Origin: an uncultured virus (IMG/VR IMGVR_UViG_3300049259_000045)
Lineage: Duplodnaviria > Heunggongvirae > Uroviricota > Caudoviricetes
Length of the DNA: 64,000 nucleotides
Strand: one strand, 5' to 3'
IMG/VR virus record: IMGVR_UViG_3300049259_000045
Part shown: one piece after another, positions 3,481-61,990 of the stretch
Layout of the letters: the number at the start of each line of letters is the position of its first letter
Numbering within the stretch: position 1 is the first letter of the stretch
Notes under the pieces: generated by a model
Told to the model about the DNA's origin: nothing
The model's input: the letters and a program-made list of their open reading frames with translations, nothing else
Databases searched by the model: none
Made by a program: the position numbers and the translations under genes

Positions 3481-4070
3481 ACTTCCACCCCCAGTTGGTC
3501 GAACACGTCCCGAGCCCACAGTGCGTCAACCAAGGCGGTGTGTCCCTCGCCCTTCTTGGGCGGTTCGACGCCGATCCGGCGAGAAATCGAGTACGAATCC
3601 CAGGGCAACGTTACGGATTCGCCACGCCCGAGCAGCACGCCAGCGGCCAGCTCCAGCGCGTTTACTACCCGGTAATGCCATGGAGCCTGTCCGAGCAGTT
3701 CCCGCAGGAACGAAGCGTCGAACGCCGTGTTGGATCCGATCAGAATGGCCTTCATCAGCCGCCACGTGATGTCTTCGATCGCCTCGGCTCGGGTCATCGG
3801 GTAGGCTGCGCCGTCCACGATCCACGCGGCTTCGGAACCCTCCGGCACCATGAACCGCTCATGGAACCGGTTGATCTCCAGCGCTTTCGGCTCGGCCCTG
3901 TCGAGGTAGTGCGGACGGATCTGCCAGACCCCCACCAGCTCGGGGTTGGTGTAGAGCGACATGCGCTTGACGCGCTGCACAATGGCGATTTCCCAGGTTT
4001 CGTGAACCTTGGGGATAAGACCGGTGGTCTCCACATCGGCGAAGTCGAAGGTTATGATGTCAGTAGACAT
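3477..4070 (-). CDS. DnaQ-like (DEDDh) 3'-5' exonuclease
   Basis: DVETTGL, SNTAFD, HTALVDA; start reassigned to ATG 4070 (TGATG coupling). Confidence 0.85.
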   Translation of the reverse strand: MSTDIITFDFADVETTGLIPKVHETWEIAIVQRVKRMSLYTNPELVGVWQIRPHYLDRAEPKALEINRFHERFMVPEGSEAAWIVDGAAYPMTRAEAIEDITWRLMKAILIGSNTAFDASFLRELLGQAPWHYRVVNALELAAGVLLGRGESVTLPWDSYSISRRIGVEPPKKGEGHTALVDALWARDVFDQLGVEV

Positions 4071-4246
4071 CAGGAGTCTCCCGTCAGATAGGGGTTCATT
4101 GCGCTGCCCAACCGAGGGCGGTCGGGCCGGTAAATCTGGTGACACTCGCATCCGCAAACGCAACAGTCTTCGCTGCGTCGGCAGTGCCCAGGGCAACCCT
4201 CGTGATTGCCCTGGGCACAATCCGGAATCAAAGGCCGGTCGGCCAA
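4070..4246 (-). CDS. Small Cys/His-rich protein (58 aa)
   Basis: Manual translation MADRPLIPDCAQGNHEGCPGHCRRSEDCCVCGCECHQ...; fills the gap between polymerase and DnaQ and is coupled to DnaQ. Confidence 0.55.
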   Translation of the reverse strand: MADRPLIPDCAQGNHEGCPGHCRRSEDCCVCGCECHQIYRPDRPRLGSAMNPYLTGDS

Positions 4247-4249
4247 CGA

Positions 4250-6601
4250 TCAGCCTTTCTCGTCCCAGCGGTCGGGAGAAATCCCCCAGTTCATGTGCCG
4301 CTTCCGGACCGAGAAGTATTGTTCGAAGCACTTCTGACCGATCTCGGACACTAGCTGAGCCTCCTTGTGCCCCTTCTCGTCGTCGGTGTGCTCGGTAACC
4401 AACGAGTCGTGAATCTGGAGGAGCAGGACGCCCGGAAGCTGGCGCTCGATCTCCAGCATCCAGTAGATCATAGCACGGGCCAAGTTGCCCTGAATGATCT
4501 GGTTGACCGCGCTATTGGTCTTCTCACTCAGGCCGTACACTCGACGCCAGCCGTCCAGCATCGTCAGGTAGCCGCAGCCGCCCTCCCAGCGGGTGACCTT
4601 GTGGGTAGCCTGGTCGGTCAGCCTCTTGAATTCGGGATAGGTCTTGAAGAAGCTGGCGATAGCCGCCTTAGTGTCCGCCATCGAGATGGGAATGCCGGAC
4701 GCTGCTTCGATTTGGGTCATCAGGGCGTAGACACCGCCACCGTACAGGATGCCGAACGTACCACGCTTGGCCGCGTTCCGGAGGTCGTAGAACCGGGGAT
4801 GGTCCTTGTCGACACCGAACAGGGCCATAGCGTTCATCGCGTGGAGGTCAGCGCCAGCGTCGAGGGCATCCCACAGCTTAGTCGAGTTGGCAATGATGGT
4901 GACCACGCGCATCTCGCCGGTGGCGAGGTCGTGCTCGGCCTGGAAGCGGCCAGACCCGGGACGGGGTCCGATGAGCTTCCGGACGGGCACCGTGTCCTCC
5001 GGGATGAGTCCGCCGTGCGGGATGGCCTGAGCCTGCCAGCGGCCCACCGCGAGGCGCCCGGACACCGTTCCTCCGGCCGCGTCTGTGGCGCGGTCGAAAT
5101 CGCTCTTGGTCTGCTTATACCGGGTCCGAATCCGGCCGTCCTTGCCGGTTCGCATGGCCCAACCGGTGTACCACTTCGAGTCGGAGTTCCGCATCTTGGT
5201 CCACTGCATCATCTCCTTGGCCCAAGGTCGGTTCTCCGCCACCAGCTTCCGCAGCTCGGGGATGTCGAGTTTCGGCTGGCCGGTCTTCTCGGTGCGTTCG
5301 GTCGGTTCCAGCCCCATTCCGTTCTTGCCGTTGCATCCTGAGCAGGAGGCAGAGCACGAAGTCGGGTACGTAACCCGCTCGGCCCAGGGGTCGCCGTCTT
5401 CCGGTGACGGCATCTCGATCTGGCTGGCCTCCGGGCAGACCGGCCCGAAGTAGAACCTCTTGGCCTGCATGACCTTGGAGGGGTCGAACGGCATTGTGTA
5501 CGACAGCCGGTGGTGACGATCCCGGAGCTTGGCGCCCTCGGCCAGAGAGTCCTCGACAGCGTACTCGACGCCTCGACGCTCCATGCGGTAGAGGGTGGTC
5601 CGCAGCTCCATCTCGGTGCGGAGCAGTTCCCAGAATCCGGGCAACGTCTCGCCTGCTTCGGCGGATCCGACCTGGTAGTCCTTGAGCCGATAGGTGAGGT
5701 TGGTGTCCTTGGCCGCGTACCGGCCCATTGCGCCGCACCACGGCAACAGGTCGTAGCGTTTGGTCATCTTGACGCCGATCTTGGCCAGCTCCAGTTTCAG
5801 CTCTTCGGCCTCGGTGCCCTCGTCCTCCCCCCACAGACGCTTGGCGGTCTTCTTGAGGGCTGCAGGCTCGATCGGGTCGATCAGCTGCTTTTGGATGACC
5901 ATGGTGCACCAGATCTGGCGACGCCGAACAGCCGGGTTGATCAGAGGTTCGAGCGTCGGCTCCATCATATGCAGCCGTTGGGGCTTGTTCAGTTCCCAGG
6001 TGCCGGGCTCGCTGTCCGGGTCCCAAGCTCCCCAACCATCCCAGATGTCCGGGTTGCCGCCAGCCCCTGCACGTAGTCCGGCTGCAAACTCCGGCATGTC
6101 GTGAATCGAGTTGTGCATGGTCAGCGAGTCGCGCCGGTCCAACCACGCAATCAGGTTGGCGTAGTCGGTCGCGGGCAGGTTGGGCATGGCCAGCTCGGGC
6201 GTGACCTCGTAGCCCAGCACCTTCGACATAGCGACCAAGATCCGGTCCTGCTCGGCCTGGTCAATAACGCCAAACACGGCGTGGCCGGTGTCCGGGTCTT
6301 CGGTCGGCTTACCGGGCTTGCCCAGAACAGGGCCCTGATCGAACGGCCACGCGAAGTCGAGCAGCTCGCCCGGCTCTACGCTCTTGATGTTGCCATGAGC
6401 GTCGTATCGAGTCACTGGCTGACGGAAGCTGACCGACACCACGGAGATCCGAGCCTCGGGCTGCGGCGGATTGTTGCCGGACTTGAAGGGCTCTCCGTCC
6501 TTGTAAAGGCCGGACCCCTCGGTGTCCACGCTGACATCCCAACCGGGCGGAAGTTCCGGCAGCAGGTCGTCGCCAACCTTGGTGAGTTGGGTAATCGGCA
6601 T
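4250..6601 (-). CDS. Family A DNA polymerase (candidate DpoZ)
   Basis: Exo motifs DTEGSGL, HNSIHD, YAAKD; GTVSGRL; motif A DLATGEMR; motif B RNAAKRGTFGILYGGG; motif C QIHD. Confidence 0.9.
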   Translation of the reverse strand: MPITQLTKVGDDLLPELPPGWDVSVDTEGSGLYKDGEPFKSGNNPPQPEARISVVSVSFRQPVTRYDAHGNIKSVEPGELLDFAWPFDQGPVLGKPGKPTEDPDTGHAVFGVIDQAEQDRILVAMSKVLGYEVTPELAMPNLPATDYANLIAWLDRRDSLTMHNSIHDMPEFAAGLRAGAGGNPDIWDGWGAWDPDSEPGTWELNKPQRLHMMEPTLEPLINPAVRRRQIWCTMVIQKQLIDPIEPAALKKTAKRLWGEDEGTEAEELKLELAKIGVKMTKRYDLLPWCGAMGRYAAKDTNLTYRLKDYQVGSAEAGETLPGFWELLRTEMELRTTLYRMERRGVEYAVEDSLAEGAKLRDRHHRLSYTMPFDPSKVMQAKRFYFGPVCPEASQIEMPSPEDGDPWAERVTYPTSCSASCSGCNGKNGMGLEPTERTEKTGQPKLDIPELRKLVAENRPWAKEMMQWTKMRNSDSKWYTGWAMRTGKDGRIRTRYKQTKSDFDRATDAAGGTVSGRLAVGRWQAQAIPHGGLIPEDTVPVRKLIGPRPGSGRFQAEHDLATGEMRVVTIIANSTKLWDALDAGADLHAMNAMALFGVDKDHPRFYDLRNAAKRGTFGILYGGGVYALMTQIEAASGIPISMADTKAAIASFFKTYPEFKRLTDQATHKVTRWEGGCGYLTMLDGWRRVYGLSEKTNSAVNQIIQGNLARAMIYWMLEIERQLPGVLLLQIHDSLVTEHTDDEKGHKEAQLVSEIGQKCFEQYFSVRKRHMNWGISPDRWDEKG

Positions 6602-17003: not shown

Positions 17004-17849
17004 TTACGCGGCAGTAGACGCGTTCATACGCTTGTCGTACGCGTCCTGGCAGGGATCATTGTCGACCTCGCCATCCTCGTTGACGTACTCAACGAGACGA
17101 TCGAACGTGGGGTTGGCGAATACCGACGGCAGTACGCCGTATCGATCCTTCCCCCGGAACCGGCCAGTGGGGACCGAGCTGGCCACGAACTTGGACGGGT
17201 CGCCGTCCTCGACATCTTCCTGCCGGGTGCACAAGGAAATGTCGACGTACCCGATGAGGTCGTTGGCGAAGGCCGGTGTCAGCGCCGGTCGGTAGTAGAT
17301 GCCACCCTCGTCGGTGTCCGTCTCTCGTCGGTCAAGGCAGACGAACGCCACGTGGCAAGGGAGGTCTCGCAGCCGCCGGGCGACCCGACGACACATCTCG
17401 GTCATTCGGCCCTGCTCCTTGAGGTCCACCTCGAACGGATCCACCACCATGCCAGCGCGCTGGCGCTTGGCGTTGCGGGTGTCCACGATGTCTTCGATGA
17501 ACCTCTTCTGCAGTTCGGTGAACGAGTCGATGAAGACTCCTATCACCCGCGTGGCCGGGTCGAGGTCGCCCTTCTTGACGGACTCCTCTTCTTCGACCAA
17601 CTTCGCTTCGAGCTGGATGGTCAGCTTGTTCATCTGGTCGAAGCTGTTGACCGGATACGGGTGGATGTTTTCCACCGGGACGCCGAGGCGCCGCAGGGGC
17701 CGCTTCTTGAGGCCCGATTCGCAGTCGATCGCGATCACTCGACCGAGCTTGGCCATGTGCGCCACGTCGGTACTCTTGCCCGATCCACCAGGGCCGAAGT
17801 ACACGGCGTTGACCCACTCGTCGGTGTCCGCCAATGTCGGAAGTGCCAT
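17004..17849 (-). CDS. Sak4-like AAA ATPase / recombinase
   Basis: GPGGSGKST, IDCESG, FIDSFTE, GKDR. Confidence 0.75.
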   Translation of the reverse strand: MALPTLADTDEWVNAVYFGPGGSGKSTDVAHMAKLGRVIAIDCESGLKKRPLRRLGVPVENIHPYPVNSFDQMNKLTIQLEAKLVEEEESVKKGDLDPATRVIGVFIDSFTELQKRFIEDIVDTRNAKRQRAGMVVDPFEVDLKEQGRMTEMCRRVARRLRDLPCHVAFVCLDRRETDTDEGGIYYRPALTPAFANDLIGYVDISLCTRQEDVEDGDPSKFVASSVPTGRFRGKDRYGVLPSVFANPTFDRLVEYVNEDGEVDNDPCQDAYDKRMNASTAA

Positions 17850-17910
17850 TTTGTTTGAGTTCTCCTTCTATCCTGCAAGACACCGGGCGTTTGGGAAACG
17901 TCCGGCCGCG

Positions 17911-18030
17911 TGGGCGGCTCGGGATTTGAACCCGCTCGGCCCCACCTCCAGGTCATCCGGCGCGTCCGCCGTCCCAAAGAATGGTCCTTTGCCATGCGGC
18001 AAACAGCTTTCCTTGCTGCTTACCCCGCCC
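17911..18030 (-). ncRNA. tRNA-like RNA with an expanded central region (~120 nt)
   Basis: GGGCGG/CCGCCC-A acceptor-like stem, CAGC-AAGGAAA-GCTG D-like arm, CGGG-TTCAAAT-CCCG T arm; no 7-nt anticodon loop. Confidence 0.55.
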
Positions 18031-18087
18031 TAGTTAGGGACTCTCGACTGGCTCACTTTCATGGGTTGCCCCACAGTCGAGAGTCCC

Positions 18088-18170
18088 CGAGTGACAGGGG
18101 GAGTCGAACCCCTTCCGAAGTGTACTAGTCTCGGAGCAAACCTGCTGCCACGTTTCCAACCCCTGATCAT
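18088..18170 (-). ncRNA. Degenerate tRNA-like element
   Basis: GGGG-TTCGACT-CCCC T arm with a weak acceptor-like stem; next to a long hairpin at 18037-18087. Confidence 0.4.
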
Positions 18171-18207
18171 GGGGGTCGGCCCAAAAGACCCGCGCGCGGG
18201 GTCTTCG

Positions 18208-18281
18208 TTCGCTGAGAAGGATTTGAACCTCCGGCCAACACCTTATCAGGGTGTCGCTCTACCAGACTGAGCTACCAGCGA
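18208..18281 (-). tRNA. tRNA-Ile(GAT)
   Basis: TCGCTGG TA GCTC AGTCTGGTA GAGC G ACACC CT GAT AA GGTGT TGGCC GGAGG TTCAAAT CCTTC TCAGCGA A. Confidence 0.9.
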
Positions 18282-18429
18282 TCGATTTAGTTGTTCCCGT
18301 TAGGCCGGACGGCAGACGGCGTGTATACCGCCCGGCCAGACAGGGTGACTTTATTGCAACTACCGGCTAAGACCAATCCGGCACCCGGGAACAGATTTCC
18401 GACTACCAACCGGATTTCTGCTCGTTGCG

Positions 18430-18568
18430 TGGGTGCCGCTGGAATCGAACCAGATCGTGACGCGGGCTGCCGCCCTATTGTCTGCACAGTCAAGGAGGGA
18501 ATCCAACCCTCACACCCGAACCTTCGGGAATTGACGGACTCGAACCGCCGTACGCCTGCCTTGCACCC
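18430..18568 (-). ncRNA. Structured RNA with three T-arm-like hairpins inside one acceptor-like stem
   Basis: GGGTGC...GCACCC-A closing stem; GGCGG-TTCGAGT-CCGTC, GAGGG-TTGGATT-CCCTC, CTGG-TTCGATT-CCAG. Confidence 0.55.
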
Positions 18569-18596
18569 TCGATATTCAGTTGTTTGACTGTGGATT

Positions 18597-18791
18597 CTAC
18601 CGGCGACGGTCGGACCTGCGCCAGGAGAACGGACCGGGAAGGTTGACCGAAGTCGTCCGACGTCCCGTGCTGCTGATCGTGCGATGGACCGGACCGGCGC
18701 CCACCGTGGCGGAGACGGACTTCTTGTTGAGGTTGATCGACAGGATGCCCGGGATGATCGTGATCCGCTTGCTGAACCGGAGCCCGCTCAT
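18597..18791 (-). CDS. DUF4236-like small basic protein
   Basis: MSGLRFSKRITIIPGILSINLNKKSVSATVG...TTSVNLPGPFSWR. Confidence 0.7.
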   Translation of the reverse strand: MSGLRFSKRITIIPGILSINLNKKSVSATVGAGPVHRTISSTGRRTTSVNLPGPFSWRRSDRRR

Positions 18792-19006
18792 GCCGTCACC
18801 GACGCAGCAGCGGCCTTCTTGGCGCGATTGGCCGCCACATTGGCGTTGTGTCGGTCCGTGTAGATCGTGACGCACTTGGTGCAGTTGGTCGGCGAGTGTC
18901 GGTCACCGCAAACCCGACGCTTCCACGCCTTGCCGTTGCTGCGGTAAGAGTTCCGGCCGGTCTCGACCACCTTCTTCGCGACCTGCTTCTGTTGCTGCTT
19001 CGCCAT
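18788..19006 (-). CDS. Small basic protein with a C-H-C-C cluster
   Basis: SD AGGGGG; CGDRH...CTKC; ATGA coupling to the next gene. Confidence 0.55.
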   Translation of the reverse strand: MAKQQQKQVAKKVVETGRNSYRSNGKAWKRRVCGDRHSPTNCTKCVTIYTDRHNANVAANRAKKAAAASVTA

Positions 19007-19067
19007 CTTGAAGGTCCCCCCTGTTCGTTTGGTAGTTAGCATCGAGAATGCCTCGTTGTATACCACC

Positions 19068-19097
19068 ATTGTACCATGCTAGGTGTTGCTCTGTCTA
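19068..19097 (-). promoter_or_regulatory. SigA/HrdB-like promoter
   Basis: TAGACA-N18-TACAAT. Confidence 0.55.
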
Positions 19098-19308
19098 CCC
19101 CGGGTGTTGGGGGTGCAGGGGTACCATCCAGCCCTGCTGATGAAGCTAACGCTGCCAAGTCGGTACACCGCCGTCAAAGCCCGTGCGACGTTTAGGGCTG
19201 ATTAGGCTCCCTAGTAGCCGGTGACTGTTGGTGGCGGGTGCAACGTCATCGTCGTGTTAGGATCCCGACGTTGCGCCAACTCCTTCATCCCGCTCATGTT
19301 CAGTTGTT

Positions 19309-19399
19309 TGGCTCTCTGGACGGGATTCGAACCCGCGTCCTCCTGCGACACCCCCGAGAGGGCCCTAGGTGAGGTGCTCTGCCCCTGAGCTACCAGAGA
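19309..19399 (-). ncRNA. tRNA-like RNA with encoded CCA but no canonical anticodon loop
   Basis: TCTCTGG TA GCTC AGGGGCA GAGC A [33-nt extended arm] AGGAC GCGGG TTCGAAT CCCGT CCAGAGA G CCA. Confidence 0.75.
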
Positions 19400-19708
19400 A
19401 CTTGGTAACGCCTATCGTGTCCCCGCTGTCACTCGCGTCCCCAGGGCGCGTCTAGCGGTGTTCTTGAGGTAGATTTTGGGTCCGCCGACCCTTGGACGGG
19501 ACCTATCCGGCACGTCGGACTTCACTCAGCTTGGTTTCCGACAACCGTAACGCTGGCTCCCCATGGAAGAGGTGCCGGATAGGGGTTGGCCTGAGGGTCC
19601 TCACGTCCGGTAAGAGCCTTAGTGGAACCTGTTAGACCACCTCGGCAAGGAACCCCATTTGCCGGGGGTTGGTGCTAAGAGACGGTGAGCGCTCACCGGG
19701 GGTCTCTG

Positions 19709-19806
19709 TGGTCGCGCCTGGAATCGAACCAGAATTACCCTTACGCAGTGTCCTAAGCGATTACCCCAAAATGGGTACGGGCGGCTTTCCGTTAGCCGAA
19801 ACGACC
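19709..19806 (-). ncRNA. tRNA-like RNA with the anticodon arm replaced by two hairpins
   Basis: GGTCGTT TC GGCT AACGGAA AGCC G CCC[TACCC/GGGTA + CGC/GCG]GGG TAAT TCTGG TTCGATT CCAGG CGCGACC A. Confidence 0.7.
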
Positions 19807-19962
19807 TCAGTTATTCAGTTGTTTTTCAAGACCGCCCGAGGGTGACGGAGAGCAGCGTGGGTGAGGCTCTTGCGTTGGTCCTCGGGCGGTCTTGCGGCTG
19901 CTCGCTAGTCGGTAGCCAGAGGCTTGCCGCCAAGCAAACTTTTTAGGGGTGCCGTAACCCAG

Positions 19963-20070
19963 TGGCGGCCAGAGGAATCGAACCTCTGCGGGTCTCCCTC
20001 GGGGGATGGAGACAAGGCCAATCGTGGATCGTTGGGGGGGACCCGACCCGTGATCGCTCCTGCAACCGCC
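19963..20070 (-). ncRNA. tRNA-like RNA (acceptor stem and T arm only)
   Basis: GGCGGTT/GGCCGCC-A stem; AGAGG-TTCGATT-CCTCT. Confidence 0.55.
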
Positions 20071-20138
20071 TTGGTTGGAACTGGCCGGGCGCCATCATCG
20101 CCGTTCGAAACGCCCGACCCGTCCCTCTTCGTACCCTT

Positions 20139-20360
20139 CTAGGGTACCATACTGTTTGCCCGGTTGTCAAGTACCTGGCCCCCCGTGGTGGGGTTGCGCT
20201 GTCCCTCCTCGTACGCTCGGTTGAGTTCGTCGGCCACGACGTCCGCAATCCGCTTGGTGCGGAATTGCAAGACACTGACCTCGACCGTGGCGCCGTCCTC
20301 GTTCACCACGTCGATGGGGTTGGTTCCCCCTCGGGGTTGGACCAGGTACTTTCTCGCCAT
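20139..20360 (-). CDS. Hypothetical protein
   Basis: SD GGAGGG; promoter TTGCGC-N18-TAGAAT at 20395-20424. Confidence 0.55.
   Translation of the reverse strand: MARKYLVQPRGGTNPIDVVNEDGATVEVSVLQFRTKRIADVVADELNRAYEEGQRNPTTGGQVLDNRANSMVP
20141..20170 (-). promoter_or_regulatory. Promoter at the head of the RNA island
   Basis: TTGACA-N18-TACCCT. Confidence 0.55.
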
Positions 20361-20397: not shown

Positions 20398-20892
20398 CTA
20401 CCATACAGCTTGCTCCGGGCGCAAGTAGCTGCGGGAGCCGTCTCGACGGTATGTCAGTACAGGAATGTTGGCCTCGTCAGCTCGGCGTATGCAGTCTTCC
20501 GTTCCTGTTGACGGAGTCTGCCACAGGAACGCCAAACACGCTATGGGCATCAGATCGACCATGTGTTGATTACGGTAGTTACCCTGAGCCGGACAGATGT
20601 CGCCCTCGCCCCAGGTGTTCGGGCGCCGGTGGCCAGCACTGCAGCTCGGTAGACATAGGCTGCTCCACTTGGCTGGCACCCGATGCAATCGAACGCCCTC
20701 ATAGTAACGTCCGATTGCCCAGCGGTCGGCTATCGCGTCTGCACCCTTACGGTTATGCCCATGTAGAACGCGCATTTCCGTGAAGGGTCCCGTCACGATC
20801 AACGCTAGGTACGCCTCCCACAAAGCGTTATCTATCATGGACCGGTCAGCCCAATTTCGACTGCCGGTGACAAGTACGAGGGCAGAACTCAT
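20398..20892 (-). CDS. SLOG-family (YspA/DUF2493-like) protein
   Basis: VLVTGSRNW, HG..KGADAIA..WA, RNQHMVD, STGTEDCIRRA. Confidence 0.75.
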   Translation of the reverse strand: MSSALVLVTGSRNWADRSMIDNALWEAYLALIVTGPFTEMRVLHGHNRKGADAIADRWAIGRYYEGVRLHRVPAKWSSLCLPSCSAGHRRPNTWGEGDICPAQGNYRNQHMVDLMPIACLAFLWQTPSTGTEDCIRRADEANIPVLTYRRDGSRSYLRPEQAVW

Positions 20893-21827
20893 CAGTGACG
20901 CTCGAATCTTTGCTCCCAACCGGTGTCCCGGAGGAACGTGACCTCTCGGTCTTCCCCGAGCTTCCGGCCGGTCAGGCACGCCTCTCGCATCCCGCAGAAC
21001 CTCTTGCAACGCTCAGCGTCCGGCTGGCGGGTGTGCTTGTTCGCTTTGGAGTACAGGTAGCGCGCTGTCTCCAAGGTCTCCCGCGCGATCGTGGCCAGCT
21101 CGGGGTCAGTGCGATTGGTCGGAACTCGCGCGAACCGGCCTTCCATCGGCTGGGGCTTGGGCTGGGCTCCCGGCTTCTCCCCAGCGGCCTTGCGGATGTG
21201 CCAGTCTGCCACCGCGTCCGGGTAGTCGCCCTTGTTCCGAGTGGTCCGGGCGCCGTTGTACAGGCAGCCGAAGATGTCTTTGCCGAGGCTGTTGAGCGCC
21301 CATTTGTAGATACCGAACTGGTCGTGCAAGTCGAGATCCTGGGTGTCTCCCGGCAAGTTGGCTGCGGTCTTGTGGTCCCATACCCACCGCCGACCGCTGG
21401 ACCGATGTTGTGCGACCAGGTCCACCCCGCCTTTGAGGTTGAATCCGGACAGGCGTCCGGCCGCAGTCCGCAGTGGTACTTCGAACCGGTACTCGACAGC
21501 CAGGATGCGCCACTCGTCGTCGGGCCCATACCGCTCGATGTACCCCTCCACGATCCACCGGACGAGGTCCACGGTTTCGGCGTCGCGGCCGGTGGTCTCG
21601 AAGTCGGCGAACAACTGGTCAAGGCTGGACTGAGCAGCGGCCTGGTTGCCGGGGTCCAACATCAGAGACCGATACCAGGTCTCCATGGCGAGGTGAAACA
21701 TGGACCCCTTGGCCAATGGGCCGGTCTCGTCGTTTGGCTTGGTCCACCTCTCCTTATAGGTTCGCAGATGGTGGTGGGGGCACTGTCGCCCACGCTGAAT
21801 CTCGGACCAGCTTACGGTAGTAGCCAC
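20892..21827 (-). CDS. PD-(D/E)XK (RecB/Cas4-like) exonuclease
   Basis: QCP, GSMFH, AVEYRF, GGVDLV, WDHKT, QFGIY, C..FC....C; GTG start after AAGGAG. Confidence 0.8.
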   Translation of the reverse strand: MATTVSWSEIQRGRQCPHHHLRTYKERWTKPNDETGPLAKGSMFHLAMETWYRSLMLDPGNQAAAQSSLDQLFADFETTGRDAETVDLVRWIVEGYIERYGPDDEWRILAVEYRFEVPLRTAAGRLSGFNLKGGVDLVAQHRSSGRRWVWDHKTAANLPGDTQDLDLHDQFGIYKWALNSLGKDIFGCLYNGARTTRNKGDYPDAVADWHIRKAAGEKPGAQPKPQPMEGRFARVPTNRTDPELATIARETLETARYLYSKANKHTRQPDAERCKRFCGMREACLTGRKLGEDREVTFLRDTGWEQRFERH

Positions 21828-28429: not shown

Positions 28430-30790
28430 TTACGACACTAGCTGGCTGACTCCGACAGGAGGCCACGAACTACCAGCGGGATATGAGATCTTGACCACCG
28501 AGGAAAGGACGGAAGCGTACTCCGGGGCCAGCGTGAGGAACACGTTGGACAAGAATAGCGTGTTGGCTGCCGCAGGAGTTCCGAAGTAGGCCGGATTGAT
28601 TCCGGCGAAAGCCGCCGTGGCTGGAGCCGCGAAGTAGTTGTTGAGGAACGTCCAAGTAGCGGCCGGAACGACAACGCCGTTGTTGCTGTTGGCCACGAAC
28701 CCGCCGTTGTTGTCGAACCAGTTGATGCCTAGCGAGATGGTGAAGCCGCTTGTAGAATACACCCATCCGTTGACCCAGTAGTACACGGTCTGACCGGCCA
28801 CCGCGCTGCCGGGGTCTACCGCGACGTTCTCCGATTCCGCGTACGGGTTGGCCGTAGAACCGTTCGGAGTTATCAACCCAGAGAACGCGAACCCGCCGTG
28901 CGTCTGGGCGCTCGACCTGGTGATGGTCGCCCCGTTGAGCGCTGTCCACGGAGAAACCGTGGTGGCGAACGTGGGGTTGGAGTTCAGGGCGTCATTAGGA
29001 AGCATCGTCGCTTCCATCACCCCGTTGATTATCTCGTACTGGTTGTACAGCAGCTGAGTGGACCGGTTTCCTTGGTTGGTCTGGGCGGGAACGGTCAAAT
29101 CTTCCCAGGTATGGAGCAGCGGCAGTAGGTTGGGGTTGCTGCCGTCTCCGTAAACCGACATCGGTACCACTACATCATTTGAATAGGTAGTCCAAGTGCC
29201 GCTGTGCCGGTTGGATACCAGTACGTCGGACGTCGTACCGGGGGAAATCGCTACGCCAAGCTCCAGGTAACTGGACTGGTCCTGATACTGGTTTTGCTGC
29301 ATCACCAGGTGATACGGATTGACAGTGGACAGGCCGGAAGCTGGCAGGGGAACGGACACCAGGGGGACCGGAATCATGAGCAGCGACACGTACACCGAAT
29401 TGATCAAGTCCAGATAGATTATCTGCCACTGACCGTTGATATTCCGGAACGCGGATGCTTGCTTTTGACTGGGTCCGATGCTCCAATGACTGCTCCACCA
29501 CTGATCGGCAGCACCATCATCCGCTGTGATTGTCATTACCTGGATGCTGTTTGACACCGTTGTGGGGCCCAACAGACCGCTGACTATGATCAAAGCGTTG
29601 TCGGTGACACAGGTGTTCCAGCCGGGGGACGGGGTGTACACCCCGACCTGCAGTGACGGACCCGGCTGCCAAGGACCCAAGGACCCGTCACTTGAGTTAA
29701 TCTTGGACATGTACACGTTAGACACGCCCACCAAGGACGTGGAGCTGGTAGACCCTCCGGCCACCACCAGCCAGCCGTTGATAACTGCCGCGTGGCTGCT
29801 GTAGATAGTGGAAGGAAACACCGGTCCTGCGGTCCACGACGATATTTGACCGTTGTTCATTTGCGCGTACCACACGCTATTAACAGCGGCACCACCGGCG
29901 CTAGTTGCTCCCCCGATTATGTACACCGTCTCGCTGGTCGAATCCGCAGCCGACGCGTGGTGATACAGCGGAGTAGGCAACGCAGTCTGCGATGACCAGG
30001 ACGCGATGGAACCTTGCAGAGAGTCCCATCCGGCCACCCACACGTAGTTGGTGGGTCCTGAACCGTTGTCTCCGCCGGTAGCCACAATAAAGTCGGAGGT
30101 GGCCGTTACTGCACCGTAAGCGGACGTCGCGGGCAGCGACGGTTGAGCCACGGCCGTGCCCATCAGGTTGTCTCCCAGGTACGGCACCAGGTTCACAACA
30201 TTCAGCGGGGTAGAGCTGCCGATGTTGGTACCACCTACCATGATCTGGTAGTTTCCGAAGGTGGAAATGGACGGGAACGTGGCTACGCCCGAGCTGTCGC
30301 CTGTTGGCCCGGTATACGTACGCTGTCGAGGTCCGCCGACGCCCATCATGGTGTTGAGAGACGGATTGGCCAGGGAGGGCGCCGAGCTGTCCGACAGACC
30401 ATTCTTGGCGCCGGTGTTGGTGAAAAACGACGCAGGTATCATGGTTGACACCACGGGACCAGCAGCCACGTTCGGGACACCGCCGGTATCTGCGTACACG
30501 CTGAACAGCATGTTGGCCCCGTTACCGACGGGGGCTATTGGGACCACAATCCGACTCAACACCGTGTTTCCGCTGGGCATGTTGAATCGTTGATCAAAGT
30601 CCAGGGTGTTGCCTGGCCTGACAGCGGTGTACAGCGGCCAGCAGTCGAACGCCTCCAATAGAGCAGCTTCGTACGCTACTTGGACCACGTGACTGCCCAG
30701 AAACTGGTCAATCTGGTTGGCGTGATTGGTGGCGTTTAGGTCTCCGGGTAGCCCATTTTTGGCTGCTTCCCAACCCGGGGTGGTAGGCAC
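28430..30790 (-). CDS. Minor tail / receptor-binding protein with Kelch repeats and a CBM-like C-terminus
   Basis: Repeated GG...W Kelch units; NSNPTF...W...SSAQTHGG CBM-like segment. Confidence 0.7.
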   Translation of the reverse strand: MPTTPGWEAAKNGLPGDLNATNHANQIDQFLGSHVVQVAYEAALLEAFDCWPLYTAVRPGNTLDFDQRFNMPSGNTVLSRIVVPIAPVGNGANMLFSVYADTGGVPNVAAGPVVSTMIPASFFTNTGAKNGLSDSSAPSLANPSLNTMMGVGGPRQRTYTGPTGDSSGVATFPSISTFGNYQIMVGGTNIGSSTPLNVVNLVPYLGDNLMGTAVAQPSLPATSAYGAVTATSDFIVATGGDNGSGPTNYVWVAGWDSLQGSIASWSSQTALPTPLYHHASAADSTSETVYIIGGATSAGGAAVNSVWYAQMNNGQISSWTAGPVFPSTIYSSHAAVINGWLVVAGGSTSSTSLVGVSNVYMSKINSSDGSLGPWQPGPSLQVGVYTPSPGWNTCVTDNALIIVSGLLGPTTVSNSIQVMTITADDGAADQWWSSHWSIGPSQKQASAFRNINGQWQIIYLDLINSVYVSLLMIPVPLVSVPLPASGLSTVNPYHLVMQQNQYQDQSSYLELGVAISPGTTSDVLVSNRHSGTWTTYSNDVVVPMSVYGDGSNPNLLPLLHTWEDLTVPAQTNQGNRSTQLLYNQYEIINGVMEATMLPNDALNSNPTFATTVSPWTALNGATITRSSAQTHGGFAFSGLITPNGSTANPYAESENVAVDPGSAVAGQTVYYWVNGWVYSTSGFTISLGINWFDNNGGFVANSNNGVVVPAATWTFLNNYFAAPATAAFAGINPAYFGTPAAANTLFLSNVFLTLAPEYASVLSSVVKISYPAGSSWPPVGVSQLVS

Positions 30791-51004: not shown

Positions 51005-51217
51005 GGCGTTTAGATCGTCAGGCTCTAGAACCAAGGGCGCCTCGCCAAGCTTCAAGCGAGGCGCCCAACGGGCTCCCGGACCACGGAGAACGTAGCCGAA
51101 ATCGGTCGTGACCGAGTCCCACTTGAGGGTCACATGCGCCCCCAGATCCTCCAGCTCGTTCATCAGTTCCGCTGCTCTGGTCAAGGCGTCCACGATACGT
51201 TCGCGCTGTTCACTCAC
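51002..51217 (-). CDS. Hypothetical protein
   Basis: GTGA coupling to the portal stop. Confidence 0.55.
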   Translation of the reverse strand: MSEQRERIVDALTRAAELMNELEDLGAHVTLKWDSVTTDFGYVLRGPGARWAPRLKLGEAPLVLEPDDLNA

Positions 51218-54200
51218 CGGACGTCCTTCCAAATTTGGTCGACCACTCTGTGCCACTCAGCCATCAACTCCGGCCGGATTGCCGGGTTTTCTGCGGCGTG
51301 CCATGAGTCCCACCAAGCCAGAGCCTCGACTTGGTCACCATCGGGGTCGTCCGGGTTGTTTACCTCATACCGGCCGTCGAATACCGGCAGGTCGGATTCG
51401 TGTTCTATCTGATACACAAACCCCGCGTAAACGCCGTTGTAAGTAAGCCACTCGCCGATCTTGACCGCGCTGTCCGGGAAGTTCATCCCGGTTTCCTCGG
51501 ACCATTCTCGCAGAGCTGCAGCCTCGGGCGTCTCGCCCTCCTCCAAGCAGCCGCCGGGAAACTCCCAGAACCCCGACGCGGGATCGGTCTCGTCATAGGC
51601 TCGTTGGAGCATGAGCAGCCGGTCAGTGTCCTTGGCATGGACGCACACACCGGCGGCTACCGGTCCTACCGACTTGGACTGATACGAGTACTCGCTGCCG
51701 CCGGTACCCTCAGTACGTTGATACGAATGGGTTTCATTCCACGGGCCGTCCTCGGTGGGAACCTTGGCCAGGTACGCTCGAACAGGCTTGCTGACCATTC
51801 GGGACGCCAGCGCTCGATGGTGTCCATCGACTACCATGGCCTTGTCGTGGCCAGGCTTCTTGACCAACAGTATGGGCCGAACGTCCTCGCCGGTTAGCAG
51901 CTTCTTGGCAAATTTGGCTACCTTACCTGCCTCGTGATCAGCAGCCCACGAACCAGCGTCCTCGAAATCGATGTCGTCGGCAGTAACCTCGATCGGACCC
52001 TGCCACTTGACGAATGCCATCCAGACTATGGCGTGTGCGGGGAAGTCACCCGCCATAGTCTGAAATGCTCCGTGTGCGGCATCGGTCATCCGAGGCGCCA
52101 TCTTGTCCGACACTGATTCGTCGTCGTCGTGACTGATCGACCCGTCAGCGTGCTGCCAGCCGTTCTCAGTGTCGTACGCGACCGGAATTCCGCATGGGCA
52201 CATCACGGAGTGCTTGGCGTGACTCTGACCCAGACCGCAGAGGGCGCAAGCCCCCTGACCGTTGTCCTTGAACTCGTGCAGCACGTCCTGGGCGTCTCCG
52301 GACGTTCCGTCGATGCCAGCCGCTTGCCGATCAGCGTCGGACTTGACGGATGACGGGCTGCAGTGTGGGCAACCCTTGTCGTGTACCGCCGGACTGCGAA
52401 ACACCTCGTCGCACTTGGGGCTGTCAATCTCGGACGGATACAAGCTGCCGCCAGCGTCGCACCGATAGCACTCGTGGCCGGTAGCGTGCTCTCCCGACCC
52501 TCCGCAGCAATCGCAGCCGGTCAGAGTAGCGGACTTGTCAGCTCCGTAGATACCGTTGACGTCGTGGGCGGACAGGAACGGACCGCCACCGCCAGCCGGA
52601 CCGCCCTGCGGACCCTCGTCCGCCTCGGTCCAGCGCTCTTGCCCGTTAGTGTCGACAATTCGACGCATCGCCAGCCTGGCTGCTGCCTTGTATTCCATGC
52701 CGCTCTTAATTCGAGACGACAGGATGCGCAAGTCAGAGAAGGTTAGGTTACGTCGATTCCATTCGGAAACGGTCAGACCCTTGGACAGATGACGAGCAGC
52801 CGCCTCCATTTCGGAGTAGACCATCCGGTACAGAGCGTTGTTGGACATCTCGCTGTGCACTTGCTCAGCGCTGATGTCGGAGGGTTCAACACTGATGCCT
52901 TGCCAGCCGCCGTTTTGGCGTGCGCGTTGGTTGCCCATATCGGCAAGCTGACGGCGGATGTCGTCCCGGGTCTGAGCTTGCGACCTGGACGGTTCCGGCA
53001 CAGTAGCCAAGAACCGCTGACGAGCGTCCTCAGCCTGATTGCGCCGAGCCGTGATGTCGCTCAACTGCTGCTGGTAATACCCGACCTCAGCGTCATCGTC
53101 CCGAAGAGTGTTGGTGCCCTCTTCTACCGGATCACCCTCCTTGATGTACTCCAAGCTGCACTTGCAGTTGGGGCCACCGAGGCAAACATCTCCGAAATCA
53201 CCATCACCAGGCCAGCCGGGCAGGCTGTGGAAGGTGTAGGTGATTCCGTCCCGAGCTATGCAGGCTCCGCAGTGCTCCGACGCTCCGAGGTGCCACACGA
53301 TCTGATAGCTACCGTCGGCCTGGAGGGTACGGCCGTACGCGATGTTGTACGCGCCGACCAGCGTCCGACCGTACAGGTCGAGTCGGCTGGATAGACGAGA
53401 TTGCGCCAAGGCCCCACCGGTGGCAAGATCCTTGAACAGCCCCATCAAGAACGGGCGTTGACTCTCGGCTCGGGAAGACGCTTCGCTGTCCACGTAGGAA
53501 GACAGGTCATCAAAGCCTGAATCGTCGTCTCCCTCTCCGTCGTCCTTGCGGACCCCGGTTATTCCGTGATCTCGACGGGCGTCACCGGCTGCCGCCCTCA
53601 TTACCTGCCGGTATCCGGTGGCAAGGTGCTGAACGCCTTCATTCAAGCCGGTGGCAGCGTCGATCTCGCCCTCTTGGTACTGGTCCACAATCCGCCGCAG
53701 ACCGAGGGTAACGCGTTTGGCGGACGCATCCACGCGGTTCTGACGCCGCGCTTGGTGCCGTGCTGCCCCCGCGTGCACGGGGCGCCTGGCCTTCTGTGTG
53801 TCCGTCTTGACGTCCGGTGGGGTCTTCTGCGACGTCTCGTGCCCCTCGGCGGCCTCGTGCCCGGGGGACTGCTGCGAGCCCCCCGGAGACCCTCCTCCTG
53901 GCTTCTTGTCGTCCGACTCTTGACCCGGCTCGGGCGGCTTTCCACCGTTCGCAGCGAGTTGCTGCGTGGCCTGCAAGCTGGCCTGACGGGTTGCACTGGC
54001 CTCGGCCAGCGTGACGAATCCGGTCGCTGGGGTGGCCCATCCAGGATCGGAAGTCTCGGGCAGGCCCCAAGGAGGAAGGTTCAGCTTCTCGCGACCTTCG
54101 TCAATCGAGCGCAGACCAGAGTTGACCTGGTTGACAACGAGCGTGGTGGTGGTTGCCTCGTCGTCTTCCTCGATCTGACCCTCGAACACAAACCGCATGT

Positions 54201-55623
54201 CGTCTTGGCCGCACGCGTCTTGCAGTACCATGTCGAAAATGTCGCTGAGGTACTGCAGCGTAGGCTTGGTGGCCTTACGGTCGGACATCGTGCTGGTCAT
54301 TTTGGACATCTGGTTGGCCGCACCACTGGACATCGTGGTGCTGACCTTAGGCGCAATACCCAGTTCCATCGGCATTACGTCGAATGCCATGCAGACCTGG
54401 TTCATTACGACTTCATCGAACGCATCCGCAATCTGCGGAGGGCGCTGCGGGTCCACCTTGCTGCCGGACGGCAGGACCAAGATCTTGTGCTTCCAAGCCG
54501 GGTCGCCCGCCACCGCGTTGAGCGCGTCCTGCAGTTCGCGGATCTGGTTCGGAGTCATGTTGGCGTTCGAGTCACCAGGCGAGATGTACACCGCAGGGAC
54601 CGTGCCCTCACGGAAGTAATCAAGCTGATAACCCTGCTTCTGCAACCCGGCCATCACGGGAACCAGCGCACGCTCGATCGGCGGAAATCCGTAAGGAGTC
54701 CACCGGCGAGGGGTCATCGGCAGGTAGAGAAGCTGATCCGTCTGGAACCTGGACACCTCGGCTCCGGTCAGACCCCCGTACTCCAGGTCTCGATCCGTCA
54801 CCAGTGTCATCAAGTCCACGCGAGGGACCCCGTACAGGTACTGCTGATAAGCCACGGCCGGAGGACGAGGGCGCTCGCCGTGGAGCCCAAGGAGCGGCCG
54901 GATGGTGGAGCCGGACAGCAGAGACAGCGAATCGAAGTCGGACCCCATCAGGCCACGTCCGCGACCCTTGGCCCACTTCTTGCGGAACAGCACCGACAGC
55001 GCATCGAACACGAACACCTCTTCGAGCAACGCGTCGATAAAAGTGTTCCAAGAGAAGTAGTCGGAGTCCGGCTTCTTGAAGAACTTCATCGCCTGAGCGC
55101 GTCGCTCGCCGAAGTCCCGCATAGCCACGCGGTCTCCGCGCATGGCCTTCGACGCTTCCTTGGTAGGCATGATGTCCCACTCCAGCGACCGGATTTCAGA
55201 CTTCCGGAGCTGGATAGCGGCTCGGGCCACCGAGTACACATCGGCCAGCGTCCGCAGCGTGTTGAAGTCCGCCAGCTTGATGCCCTCGGAACCAGGCTGC
55301 CCTACCGGAAGGTTCCACCCAACCTCGTACTGGAACAGCCGAGGTTCCGGCAGGTCCGAATCCTCGGGGGGAGCGTCCACCGGAACAGGCAAGATCGGGC
55401 TGAACGGCCCGAATGCTCCGTCAGTGAACGTCTGCGCCGGTCGCGGGAGGTACGATCGATAGGCGTTGGACCAAGTTCCCGTTGCCCCCCCGGAGTCAAG
55501 CTCTCTGGCCAGCGGAGAAATTTGAGAGGTGGAGATGCCGGGTAGCCCCTGGTTGGCCGGGCTCGGGCTCTGTGCGCCCGGTATGGCCTTCATGCTACTG
55601 ATGATGGAACCGCGTGGAGCCAC
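51214..55623 (-). CDS. Portal protein fused to MuF-like, Zn-binding, ParB-like and NUDIX domains
   Basis: Portal YGFPPIE, YFREGTVP; MuF HCGAC...PGDG...CLGGPNCKC; ParB PILLV...VDGHHR; Nudix box GGCLEEGETPEAAALREWSEETG. Confidence 0.85.
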   Translation of the reverse strand: MAPRGSIISSMKAIPGAQSPSPANQGLPGISTSQISPLARELDSGGATGTWSNAYRSYLPRPAQTFTDGAFGPFSPILPVPVDAPPEDSDLPEPRLFQYEVGWNLPVGQPGSEGIKLADFNTLRTLADVYSVARAAIQLRKSEIRSLEWDIMPTKEASKAMRGDRVAMRDFGERRAQAMKFFKKPDSDYFSWNTFIDALLEEVFVFDALSVLFRKKWAKGRGRGLMGSDFDSLSLLSGSTIRPLLGLHGERPRPPAVAYQQYLYGVPRVDLMTLVTDRDLEYGGLTGAEVSRFQTDQLLYLPMTPRRWTPYGFPPIERALVPVMAGLQKQGYQLDYFREGTVPAVYISPGDSNANMTPNQIRELQDALNAVAGDPAWKHKILVLPSGSKVDPQRPPQIADAFDEVVMNQVCMAFDVMPMELGIAPKVSTTMSSGAANQMSKMTSTMSDRKATKPTLQYLSDIFDMVLQDACGQDDMRFVFEGQIEEDDEATTTTLVVNQVNSGLRSIDEGREKLNLPPWGLPETSDPGWATPATGFVTLAEASATRQASLQATQQLAANGGKPPEPGQESDDKKPGGGSPGGSQQSPGHEAAEGHETSQKTPPDVKTDTQKARRPVHAGAARHQARRQNRVDASAKRVTLGLRRIVDQYQEGEIDAATGLNEGVQHLATGYRQVMRAAAGDARRDHGITGVRKDDGEGDDDSGFDDLSSYVDSEASSRAESQRPFLMGLFKDLATGGALAQSRLSSRLDLYGRTLVGAYNIAYGRTLQADGSYQIVWHLGASEHCGACIARDGITYTFHSLPGWPGDGDFGDVCLGGPNCKCSLEYIKEGDPVEEGTNTLRDDDAEVGYYQQQLSDITARRNQAEDARQRFLATVPEPSRSQAQTRDDIRRQLADMGNQRARQNGGWQGISVEPSDISAEQVHSEMSNNALYRMVYSEMEAAARHLSKGLTVSEWNRRNLTFSDLRILSSRIKSGMEYKAAARLAMRRIVDTNGQERWTEADEGPQGGPAGGGGPFLSAHDVNGIYGADKSATLTGCDCCGGSGEHATGHECYRCDAGGSLYPSEIDSPKCDEVFRSPAVHDKGCPHCSPSSVKSDADRQAAGIDGTSGDAQDVLHEFKDNGQGACALCGLGQSHAKHSVMCPCGIPVAYDTENGWQHADGSISHDDDESVSDKMAPRMTDAAHGAFQTMAGDFPAHAIVWMAFVKWQGPIEVTADDIDFEDAGSWAADHEAGKVAKFAKKLLTGEDVRPILLVKKPGHDKAMVVDGHHRALASRMVSKPVRAYLAKVPTEDGPWNETHSYQRTEGTGGSEYSYQSKSVGPVAAGVCVHAKDTDRLLMLQRAYDETDPASGFWEFPGGCLEEGETPEAAALREWSEETGMNFPDSAVKIGEWLTYNGVYAGFVYQIEHESDLPVFDGRYEVNNPDDPDGDQVEALAWWDSWHAAENPAIRPELMAEWHRVVDQIWKDVR

Positions 55624-60694: not shown

Positions 60695-60726
60695 GACCCC
60701 CTGACGATTACCTTCGTCAGGGGGTC
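60695..60726 (-). terminator. Intrinsic terminator
   Basis: GACCCCCTGACGA-loop-TCGTCAGGGGGTC followed by GTTT. Confidence 0.7.
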
Positions 60727-60778: not shown

Positions 60779-61061
60779 AGCACATTTAAAGACAGCGGGT
60801 CAGTCTTAGGTCATCTCGTTCTGCCATTGAACGTACCGCGCGTCGAGTCGCGCGGGCTGGATTCGAACCAGCAACCGATGAGTGTCGCCCGAAGTCAGTC
60901 GATCTGGAGCCGAACGCGATGCGTTAGCTTGGAGCAATAGTCTGAGATTGACGGTCCCTGCCTCTACCACCTGGGCTACCTCGGCTCGTTGTGCCGAGGG
61001 GAGGTGTCGAACCTCCGCTGTCAGGACGTTTTCAGACTGAGCTTTAGCTTCAGCTTGTGCT
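60779..61061 (-). ncRNA. Structured RNA with two circularly permuted tRNA-like (YrlA-like) domains
   Basis: Domains at 60954-61027 and 60811-60881, each ordered T arm, loop-closed acceptor stem, D arm; AGCACA/TGTGCT closing helix; hexamer repeats. Confidence 0.75.
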
Positions 61062-61916: not shown

Positions 61917-61990
61917 TGGCGCCGACCGGATTCGAACCGGTGACCTCTGGGTTATGGGCCCAGCGTGCTACCGAACTGCACTACGGCGCT
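61917..61990 (-). tRNA. Initiator-type tRNA-Met(CAT)
   Basis: AGCGCCG TA GTGC AGTTCGGTA GCAC G CTGGG CC CAT AA CCCAG AGGTC ACCGG TTCGAAT CCGGT CGGCGCC A; 1:72 mismatch and three G:C pairs in the anticodon stem. Confidence 0.9.

Follow-up and report, generated by a model that had tools for sequence, protein, structure and literature searches.

Among the closest described counterparts of the RNAs considered here is the "TLD-only" transfer-messenger RNA (tmRNA) of Mycobacterium phage DS6A, a phage-encoded molecule that, according to Hudson, Lau & Williams (2014, PMC4131195), amounts to little more than the transfer RNA (tRNA)-like domain (TLD). Two further precedents are YrlA, a Y RNA-like RNA of bacteria and mycobacteriophages whose phage genes adjoin a Ro60 gene (Chen et al., 2014, PMC4201824), and the t-elements of plant mitochondria, anticodon-less tRNA-like folds next to mRNA ends that act as cleavage signals for RNase P and RNase Z (Forner et al., 2007, PMC1920247). 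Here, we describe an RNA island at positions 17,912–20,170 of a 64,000-nt stretch of DNA from an uncultured tailed virus (IMG/VR record IMGVR_UViG_3300049259_000045; this whole stretch is called the window below), in which six tRNA-shaped elements without an anticodon loop accompany a single canonical tRNA; all island coordinates are read on the minus strand. Murine gammaherpesvirus 68, an animal virus, has an array in which hairpins stand between non-aminoacylated tRNA-like units and tRNA-processing enzymes part the one from the other; there, transcription is by RNA polymerase III, and the hairpins are microRNA precursors. The separate designs found in the window have precedents in TLD-only tmRNA, YrlA, and t-elements; for a promoter-driven island of several mimic architectures in an actinobacteriophage-like genome, a search of the openly accessible literature (for Chen et al., 2014, the article itself) gave no description. 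We tentatively favor the reading that the elements are trans-acting, non-decoding mimics, which would occupy host proteins that bind the top half of tRNA.

T-arm motifs were defined by the loop TTCRANY with at least four closing pairs, and 300 simulated sequences served as the control. The 64-kb window holds 12 such motifs, against 1.44 ± 1.18 in the simulated sequences (maximum 6 among the 300), an approximately eight-fold excess; eight of the 12 fall within 17935–19987, all on the minus strand, one being that of tRNA-Ile and another (at 18549) lying inside element E6. Pairing of the 7 nt after each T arm with a complementary upstream strand defines six elements besides tRNA-Ile, namely, E1, E2, E3, E6, E7, and E8. 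An acceptor helix together with a T arm and a UUCRANY loop is found in E1, E2, E3, E6, and E7 and, weakly, in E8, and a 7-nt anticodon loop on a 5-bp stem in none of the six (ARAGORN; in the Rfam alignments, insertions of 27 nt in E3 and 38 nt in E2). The acceptor and T arms are reproduced by the minimum-energy folds of E1, E2, and E6 and by the centroid fold of E3. E1, E2, E3, and E7 are strongly supported, E6 moderately, and E8 weakly. The count of six agrees with that of a first-pass annotation.

Over the whole window, ARAGORN calls only tRNA-Ile(GAU) in the island (18207–18281; Rfam tRNA, 67.9 bits) and a tRNA-Met at 61990–61916, so that the island indeed has one canonical tRNA. At gathering cut-offs, Rfam passes only tRNA-Ile and E3 there (19399–19312, 47.5 bits), and E1, E6, E7, and E8 have no match to the Rfam tRNA model at E up to 10. 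It had been anticipated that standard tools would give pseudo calls or none for the mimics; ARAGORN calls tRNA-Ile alone in the island, and in Rfam E3 clears the cut-off of 29 bits.

Two relatives carry a tRNA/tRNA-like island directly upstream of the Sak4 gene, as the window does: L001 (contig G001 of IMG/VR, 89 kb, 99% complete), a close relative with Sak4 78% identical, and L019 (IMG/VR), a distant one with Sak4 51% identical. The former keeps E1, E2, the E3 type, and E7 with compensatory changes; in the latter, E7 recurs within a tRNA island whose place in the genome is unchanged. A variant from a freshwater metagenome of a different study (X4) consists of short contigs of low depth covering E7, E6, E3, and one hairpin. 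In L001, tRNA-Leu(GAG) at 4656–4736 stands in place of tRNA-Ile, and two paralogous mimics share a 12-nt tetraloop arm, so that the content of the island turns over by whole modules between related phages.

The elements are a mixed set rather than one family, E1 and E7 having no D arm and E2 and E3 being cloverleaves. In E2 (19709–19806), which has a 6-bp acceptor, a D arm (GGCU/AGCC), and a T arm, a branched insert of 44 nt replaces the anticodon arm; E3 (19309–19399) has a 7-bp acceptor, a D arm, a T arm, and an encoded CCA, with an irregular 33-nt hairpin in place of the anticodon arm. The Rfam tRNA model aligns end to end with both, and in each case the insertion falls exactly at the anticodon loop; E2 itself scores 26.2 bits, below the cut-off, and its L001 homologue 31.3 bits. 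All 23 predicted pairs of E2 are kept between the window and L001, with one compensatory change and none broken. E3 has two homologues in L001 (5310–5376 and 5769–5833), each with the 12-nt arm CCGA-GGCA-UCGG, and among these three sequences four of the seven acceptor pairs have changed on both sides.

The 138-nt element E6 (18430–18568) has a 6-bp acceptor (GGGUGC/GCACCC), a T arm at its 3′ side, and internal hairpins with T-loop-like loops at 18549 and 18511. Its counterpart in L001 is a positional analogue only (5524–5634); the X4 variant differs from the window at two positions, one of which makes a loop canonical (UUCGAAU). E8 (17912–18030), a possible mimic seen in the window only, has a 6-bp acceptor, a weak T arm of four pairs, and a folding z-score of −2.72; in its minimum-energy fold the T arm does not form.

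E1 and E7 share a different layout, i.e., an acceptor, a short linker containing G-G-U-U, a variable hairpin region, and a T arm. In E1 (19963–20070, 108 nt), the acceptor GGCGGUU/GGCCGCC and the T arm AGAGG-UUCGAUU-CCUCU enclose a variable 60-nt middle, and A-C follows; between the window and L001, the two ends are conserved at 21/26 and 28/30 columns and the middle at 27/74. None of 185,579 species genomes contains the 23-nt 3′ end of E1; since it is absent from the genome contigs, this end is neither a copied end of a host tRNA or tmRNA nor an attP-like fragment. E7 (18091–18151, 61 nt) runs from the acceptor through the linker CAGGUUUGC and a 6-bp stem, whose loop has 10 nt, to the T arm; the linker, of the form CAGGUUYGC, is conserved across phages of 43–63% GC. 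A covariance model, R1, was built from four E7-type sequences; it gives 82 bits for E7 of the window, 57.4 bits for the L001 copy, which is outside the model, and 26.8 bits (E 6e-4) for E1.

In E7, five pairs have changed on both sides between the window and L001 and none is broken (by manual reading; the automatic alignment misplaces the 3′ end). In an alignment of eight family members, 96.1% of cells are paired and 13 of the 18 pairs have changed on both sides; none of 500 shuffles reaches these values, and slid partners pair at 57% at most. The X4 variant has eight changes in E7. Four of them are in stems and all are compatible with pairing: U18135-A18114 becomes C-G, and two G-C pairs become G-U, one of which can alternatively mend an A-C mismatch of the T stem; the remaining four are in loops or the linker. 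Together with the compensatory changes in E1 and E2 relative to L001 and in the E3 set, these observations show that helices have been kept, as expected of selection rather than decay, and thus support what the first-pass annotation had argued from the intact stems; the covariation across related phages that it had proposed as a check is found in the E7 family and in the E3 acceptor.

All parts of the tRNA-like domain of tmRNA, namely, an acceptor, a D-loop analogue without a D stem, and a T arm, are present in E1 and E7. The TLD-only tmRNA of DS6A resembles them: it, too, has an acceptor helix and a T arm, a D-loop analogue stands for the D arm, and a short hairpin takes the place of message and pseudoknots. 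R1 finds this element at 28478–28559 of the DS6A record (L093 1979–2060; 17.8 bits, E 0.003). In the GenBank record, this stretch separates gp33 from gp34 and bears no annotation. The element has G3:U70 and an A-CC end, as do the family members L025, L089, L065, and L041 (see below); E1 and E7 lack G3:U70, and the similarity of sequence is weak at these 17.8 bits; moreover, the window has two TLD-type units plus other classes of mimic. Hence, E1 and E7 are built like TLD-only tmRNA and yet stand outside the tmRNA family, having no G3:U70, no tag frame, and no Rfam match; by architecture, being phage-encoded and little more than the tRNA-like domain, they are of the DS6A type. ARAGORN finds no tmRNA in the island, nor does the Rfam tmRNA model (RF00023, cut-off 47 bits) at E up to 10.

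Two more specific forms of tmRNA were considered for E1 and rejected. As a permuted or two-piece tmRNA, it would pair with a downstream GGCGGC (a partial match to beta_tmRNA), but L001 has not retained this pairing. If E1 were a tagged mini-tmRNA, it would encode a reading frame, and none is conserved; the insertions and deletions relative to L001 are not multiples of three.

The E7 design also occurs in unrelated phages of 43–50% G+C: L025, where it is beside tRNA-Gln and tRNA-Tyr, and L026/L027. Three further loci (L089, L065, and L041), picked by R1 from 63, are in bacterial metagenome-assembled genomes. These TLD-only tmRNA-like RNAs are about 70 nt long (L025 2498–2568; L026 2484–2553, minus strand; L089 598–668; L065 598–669; L041 584–655, minus strand). 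In L025, L089, L065, and L041 they start with GGGGGCA and end with UGCCUCC-A-C, which yields G3:U70; thus, a G-U at pair 3:70 is found in four of the eight members of the E7 family, and all the TLD-only RNAs listed except L026 combine G3:U70 with an A-C tail. None of them reaches the Rfam cut-off. L089 aligns end to end with the Rfam tmRNA model with 328 middle positions deleted (25.8 bits against the cut-off of 47). A further tRNA-like fold lies directly upstream of the elements in both L089 and L026. Outside tmRNA, E7 aligns over the whole model of mascRNA/MEN-beta (RF01684), i.e., over the acceptor, the reduced D region, the hairpin, and the T arm, with 22.9 bits against a cut-off of 42.5; mascRNA belongs to the eukaryotic nucleus, and the likeness is confined to architecture.

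A second island in the window, at 60791–61038 (minus strand), has two tandem YrlA-like RNAs, each of which combines T and D arms with an acceptor stem that a loop of 6–7 nt closes and has its ends on the anticodon side; a terminator is at 60695–60726. The Rfam YrlA model gives them 29.4 and 24.0 bits (cut-off 69). This island is downstream of a DUF7873 gene and tRNA-Met and is absent from the relative G001. YrlA (RF02553) is likewise an anticodon-less tRNA mimic, and it has both a T arm and a D arm; its topology, a four-way junction, is exact in the RNAs of the second island but differs from that of the first-island elements, in which the acceptor is open as in tRNA. A Ro60/TROVE gene was found neither among 53 reading frames of the window (25 scanned against PHROGs and 28 against Pfam) nor in G001. 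The first-pass annotation had taken the elements for one undescribed set of RNAs; this view has to be given up, as several architectures are present, E1 and E7 share the TLD-only design of DS6A, and YrlA-like RNAs form an island of their own.

Database scans add few relatives. Those of IMG/VR with the E7 loop, the loop of hairpin H0 (see below), and the Sak4 protein returned the L001 contig alone, and those of metagenome contigs with the Sak4 protein alignment and an E2 5′ pattern gave no match. The 17-mer of the L001 tetraloop arm occurs at 10 loci, nine of which are chance matches in seemingly coding DNA with no tRNA nearby. The E7 pattern occurs at 10 loci of IMG/VR; six of them (L020–L024 and L028) were discarded, a complementary T stem and acceptor being absent (by inspection, not by R1 scoring). 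In genome contigs the same pattern has 63 loci, about the chance number by a rough estimate, of which R1 scores three strongly (48–55 bits), five weakly (21–27 bits), and 55 not at all. Searches of GenBank phages by blastn with the island and with the L025 and L026 elements returned tRNA-Ile, a 45-nt core shared with phages KimJongPhill and Zuko, or nothing.

The island lies between a small gene (20139–20360) and the Sak4 gene (start at 17849). Promoter P1, read from the sequence at 20141–20170, has TTGACA (20170–20165), an 18-nt spacer, and TACCCT (20146–20141), and its copy in L001 is identical. The promoter that the first-pass annotation had placed here is thereby upheld, although the consensus promoter scan does not list it. 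That scan does list P2 (19068–19097), TAGACA-18 nt-TACAAT with an extended TG, which matches at 10 of 12 positions and is conserved in L001. The same scan found no promoter between E8 and the start of Sak4, and the distance from the last mimic to this start is 50–63 nt in the window and L001 alike. Two small basic genes are inside the island, again in agreement with the earlier description: one of 72 amino acids (18788–19006, isoelectric point 10.6, motif CGDRHSP-NC-KC), which is 60% identical to its L001 counterpart and has no match to a Pfam or PHROG family, and one of 64 amino acids (18597–18791, isoelectric point 12.0), which belongs to DUF4236 (E 4.8e-15). Nine further reading frames of the island are above the cut-off of no Pfam family.

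The mimics alternate with hairpins. The first of the transcript, H0 (20083–20119, z −2.21), has a 19-nt loop, UUUCGAACGGCGAUGAUGG, that is identical in L001 (about 4050–4095); there the stem sequence differs yet still pairs. The four long hairpins named in the first-pass annotation all fold better than shuffled sequence: one with a 15-bp stem between E1 and E2 (19827–19894, z −7.12), a hairpin RNA in which about 41 nt form a conserved core (19502–19583, z −3.74), a compound module (18292–18393, z −3.35) partly conserved in L001 (5414–5505), and a 14-bp hairpin seen in the window only (18037–18087, z −6.06). The core of the 19502–19583 hairpin RNA (GCGUUACGGUUGUCGGARACCAAGCYGAGUGAAGUCCGACG) is common to Streptomyces phages KimJongPhill and Zuko, whose copies (L004 3488–3580 and L005 2488–2580, both minus strand) are unannotated and adjoin tRNA-Lys; the outer helix is particular to each copy, and the RNA matches no Rfam family. 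Directly after tRNA-Ile, a terminator-like GC hairpin followed by UUUU was read from the sequence at 18183–18203, and L001 also has a hairpin at this position.

Several features bear on how the units may be released. With the true tRNAs counted in, the window and L001 have 14 elements; AC follows 12 of them, which suggests a shared route of 3′ maturation. A/U-rich leaders precede several units, and three of them carry AAACAACUGAA. This sequence is confined to the island (18575–18585, 19299–19309, and 19814–19824, minus strand); it is found 5–8 nt upstream of E2, of E6, and of a small helix, it also adjoins the CCA of E3 on the downstream side, and variants of it precede tRNA-Ile (about 18296) and an element of L001 (5508–5520). 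It may be a leader or a processing site; its count is reached by 3 of 100 shuffles. The motif AAACAACTGAA has three copies, a count reached by 3 of 100 shuffles, and is only suggestive.

In the reading that we tentatively favor, the island would be a non-coding RNA operon of the phage, driven by P1 and P2 and running into the Sak4 operon of replication genes. Each unit would keep the top half of tRNA, in which the acceptor helix stacks on the T arm and a D arm or D-loop analogue is added, and would have no anticodon loop. Given the shared acceptor/T-arm minihelix, which both enzymes named below use, the A-C tails, and the leaders, host RNase P and RNase Z would be expected to excise the units by the route taken by tRNA-Ile, with CCA then added. 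The RNAs so released would be stable, unable to decode, and would act in trans on host proteins that recognize the top half of tRNA. The parts conserved among relatives are those of the top half, and the replaced arms evolve freely, which points to a role depending on the top half. The most specific proposal, by analogy with the DS6A-type molecule, is that E1 and E7 might titrate SmpB and the factors of trans-translation; the partner of E2 and E3 could be an enzyme or toxin that binds the elbow or the acceptor end.

A number of observations weigh against this reading. Excision and stability of the mimics are predictions, and the island's location, in the Sak4 operon leader, would suit an exclusively cis role just as well. 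The alanine identity pair G3:U70 is missing from both TLD-type units of the window (U-A in E7, at columns 3/94, and C3-G70 in E1), and neither of them matches RF00023 at E up to 10. For E6 and E8, no sequence homologues were found in the relatives searched. In the X4 variant of E3, a swap of UC to CU in the acceptor results in one C-A mismatch and one U-G pair. The folding z-scores are not significant for E1 (−1.38), E2 (−0.85), E3 (−0.30), E6 (0.00), and E7 (+0.85). The eight-row alignment of E7 (A9) was fitted to R1, which was itself built from four of the eight rows, and it therefore leans towards the structure; the relatives are two phage contigs and one low-depth variant, so that the counts for E1, E2, and E3 come from two or three sequences.

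The strongest competitor, which we consider possible though on balance unlikely, is that the elements work in cis only, as marks of processing and stability at which RNase P and RNase Z would cut to free tRNA-Ile, the hairpin RNAs, and the mRNAs of the small genes and the Sak4 operon, the excised mimics themselves being functionless. The setting speaks for it: the island stands between the promoters and the Sak4 operon with no promoter found from E8 to the start of Sak4, mimics alternate with long hairpins, and the last mimic keeps its short distance to Sak4 in both the window and L001. The placement in an operon leader resembles that of t-elements, which are documented as cleavage signals (Forner et al., 2007, PMC1920247); unlike the island, however, t-elements are organellar and not of phage origin and have no conserved D analogue, and cleavage in the island is only predicted. 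A minihelix suffices for cutting, and a mark of this kind needs neither a D analogue nor D arms; it thus leaves unexplained the linker CAGGUUYGC, kept over phages of such different base composition, the D arms of E2 and E3, the near-identity of the E1 3′ ends (28/30 columns), and the presence of a separate pair of YrlA-like RNAs in the same phage. For these reasons, we prefer the trans-acting reading to the cis-only one. The two roles are not exclusive, as excision would serve both.

A bolder extension of the trans-acting reading, which we regard as doubtful, joins the island and the YrlA-like pair into an RNA-only kit for host takeover or counter-defense, in which each mimic would soak up a different shape-reading host protein. 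Candidate targets would be SmpB and trans-translation for E1 and E7 and Ro60/Rsr for the YrlA-like pair, while E2, E3, and E6 might engage acceptor-end-modifying enzymes or toxins.

The first-pass annotation had also proposed that the RNAs serve as scaffolds or as decoys for host anticodon nucleases, and neither idea fares well. If the tRNA body were a stabilizing scaffold, the inserted arm would be the functional part, as the seed of a small RNA or an aptamer. The inserts are structured, and the 10-nt loop of E7, RCUAGUACAC, is the same in the window, L001, and X4 except for its first base; however, this loop is replaced in L019 and has no exact complement elsewhere in the window, and the inserts of E1 and E3 differ completely between the window and L001. 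The replaced arms being the least conserved parts, the scaffold idea is weakened to the point of being improbable. Decoys for anticodon nucleases would agree with the location of the island in an early or replication region and with the fact that phage tRNAs counter tRNA-cutting defenses. Known anticodon nucleases, however, recognize the anticodon loop, and none of the six elements has a 7-nt one; the L001 versions of E3 have a loop of 4 nt, and here, too, the replaced arm is the least conserved part. We therefore consider this role very improbable. That the elements are decaying tRNA pseudogenes or intron-bearing tRNAs that decode after splicing is scarcely credible: ARAGORN with introns and low thresholds can be forced into calls of Pro(agg) with a 6-nt intron, Arg, Thr, and Ser, but these are mutually inconsistent, compensatory changes keep the helices, splicing could not restore an anticodon arm, for which 17 nt are needed, from the 12-nt arm of L001, and the inserts are far too short for group I introns.

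The window as a whole has 61% G+C, and its sequence is present in soil-metagenome runs, with no RNA run among those recorded for it. Almost all of its real genes are on the minus strand, and a PHROG scan identifies a tape-measure protein, portal, terminase, DNA polymerase, primase-polymerase, helicase, exonuclease, and the Sak4-like annealing protein. Just upstream of the RNA island, at 20398–21009 (minus strand), is the gene of a SLOG-family protein (YAcAr, related to YpsA). The gene at 51214–55623 (minus strand) encodes a protein of 1469 amino acids in which a portal domain is joined to a C-terminal NUDIX hydrolase domain, according to PHROG matches.

Standard annotation misses genes of this kind: with their usual thresholds, ARAGORN and Rfam report nothing beyond the true tRNA and E3. 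The covariance model of E7, together with the TLD-only family in unrelated phages and metagenome-assembled bacterial genomes, offers a handle for a wider census. The occurrence of at least three anticodon-less mimic architectures in one phage, under the phage's own promoters, suggests that the shape of tRNA is a general tool of phages, whether for processing RNA or, possibly, for titrating host factors. If the elements do act in trans, this would be an RNA-based interference with ribosome rescue or with tRNA-directed defenses.

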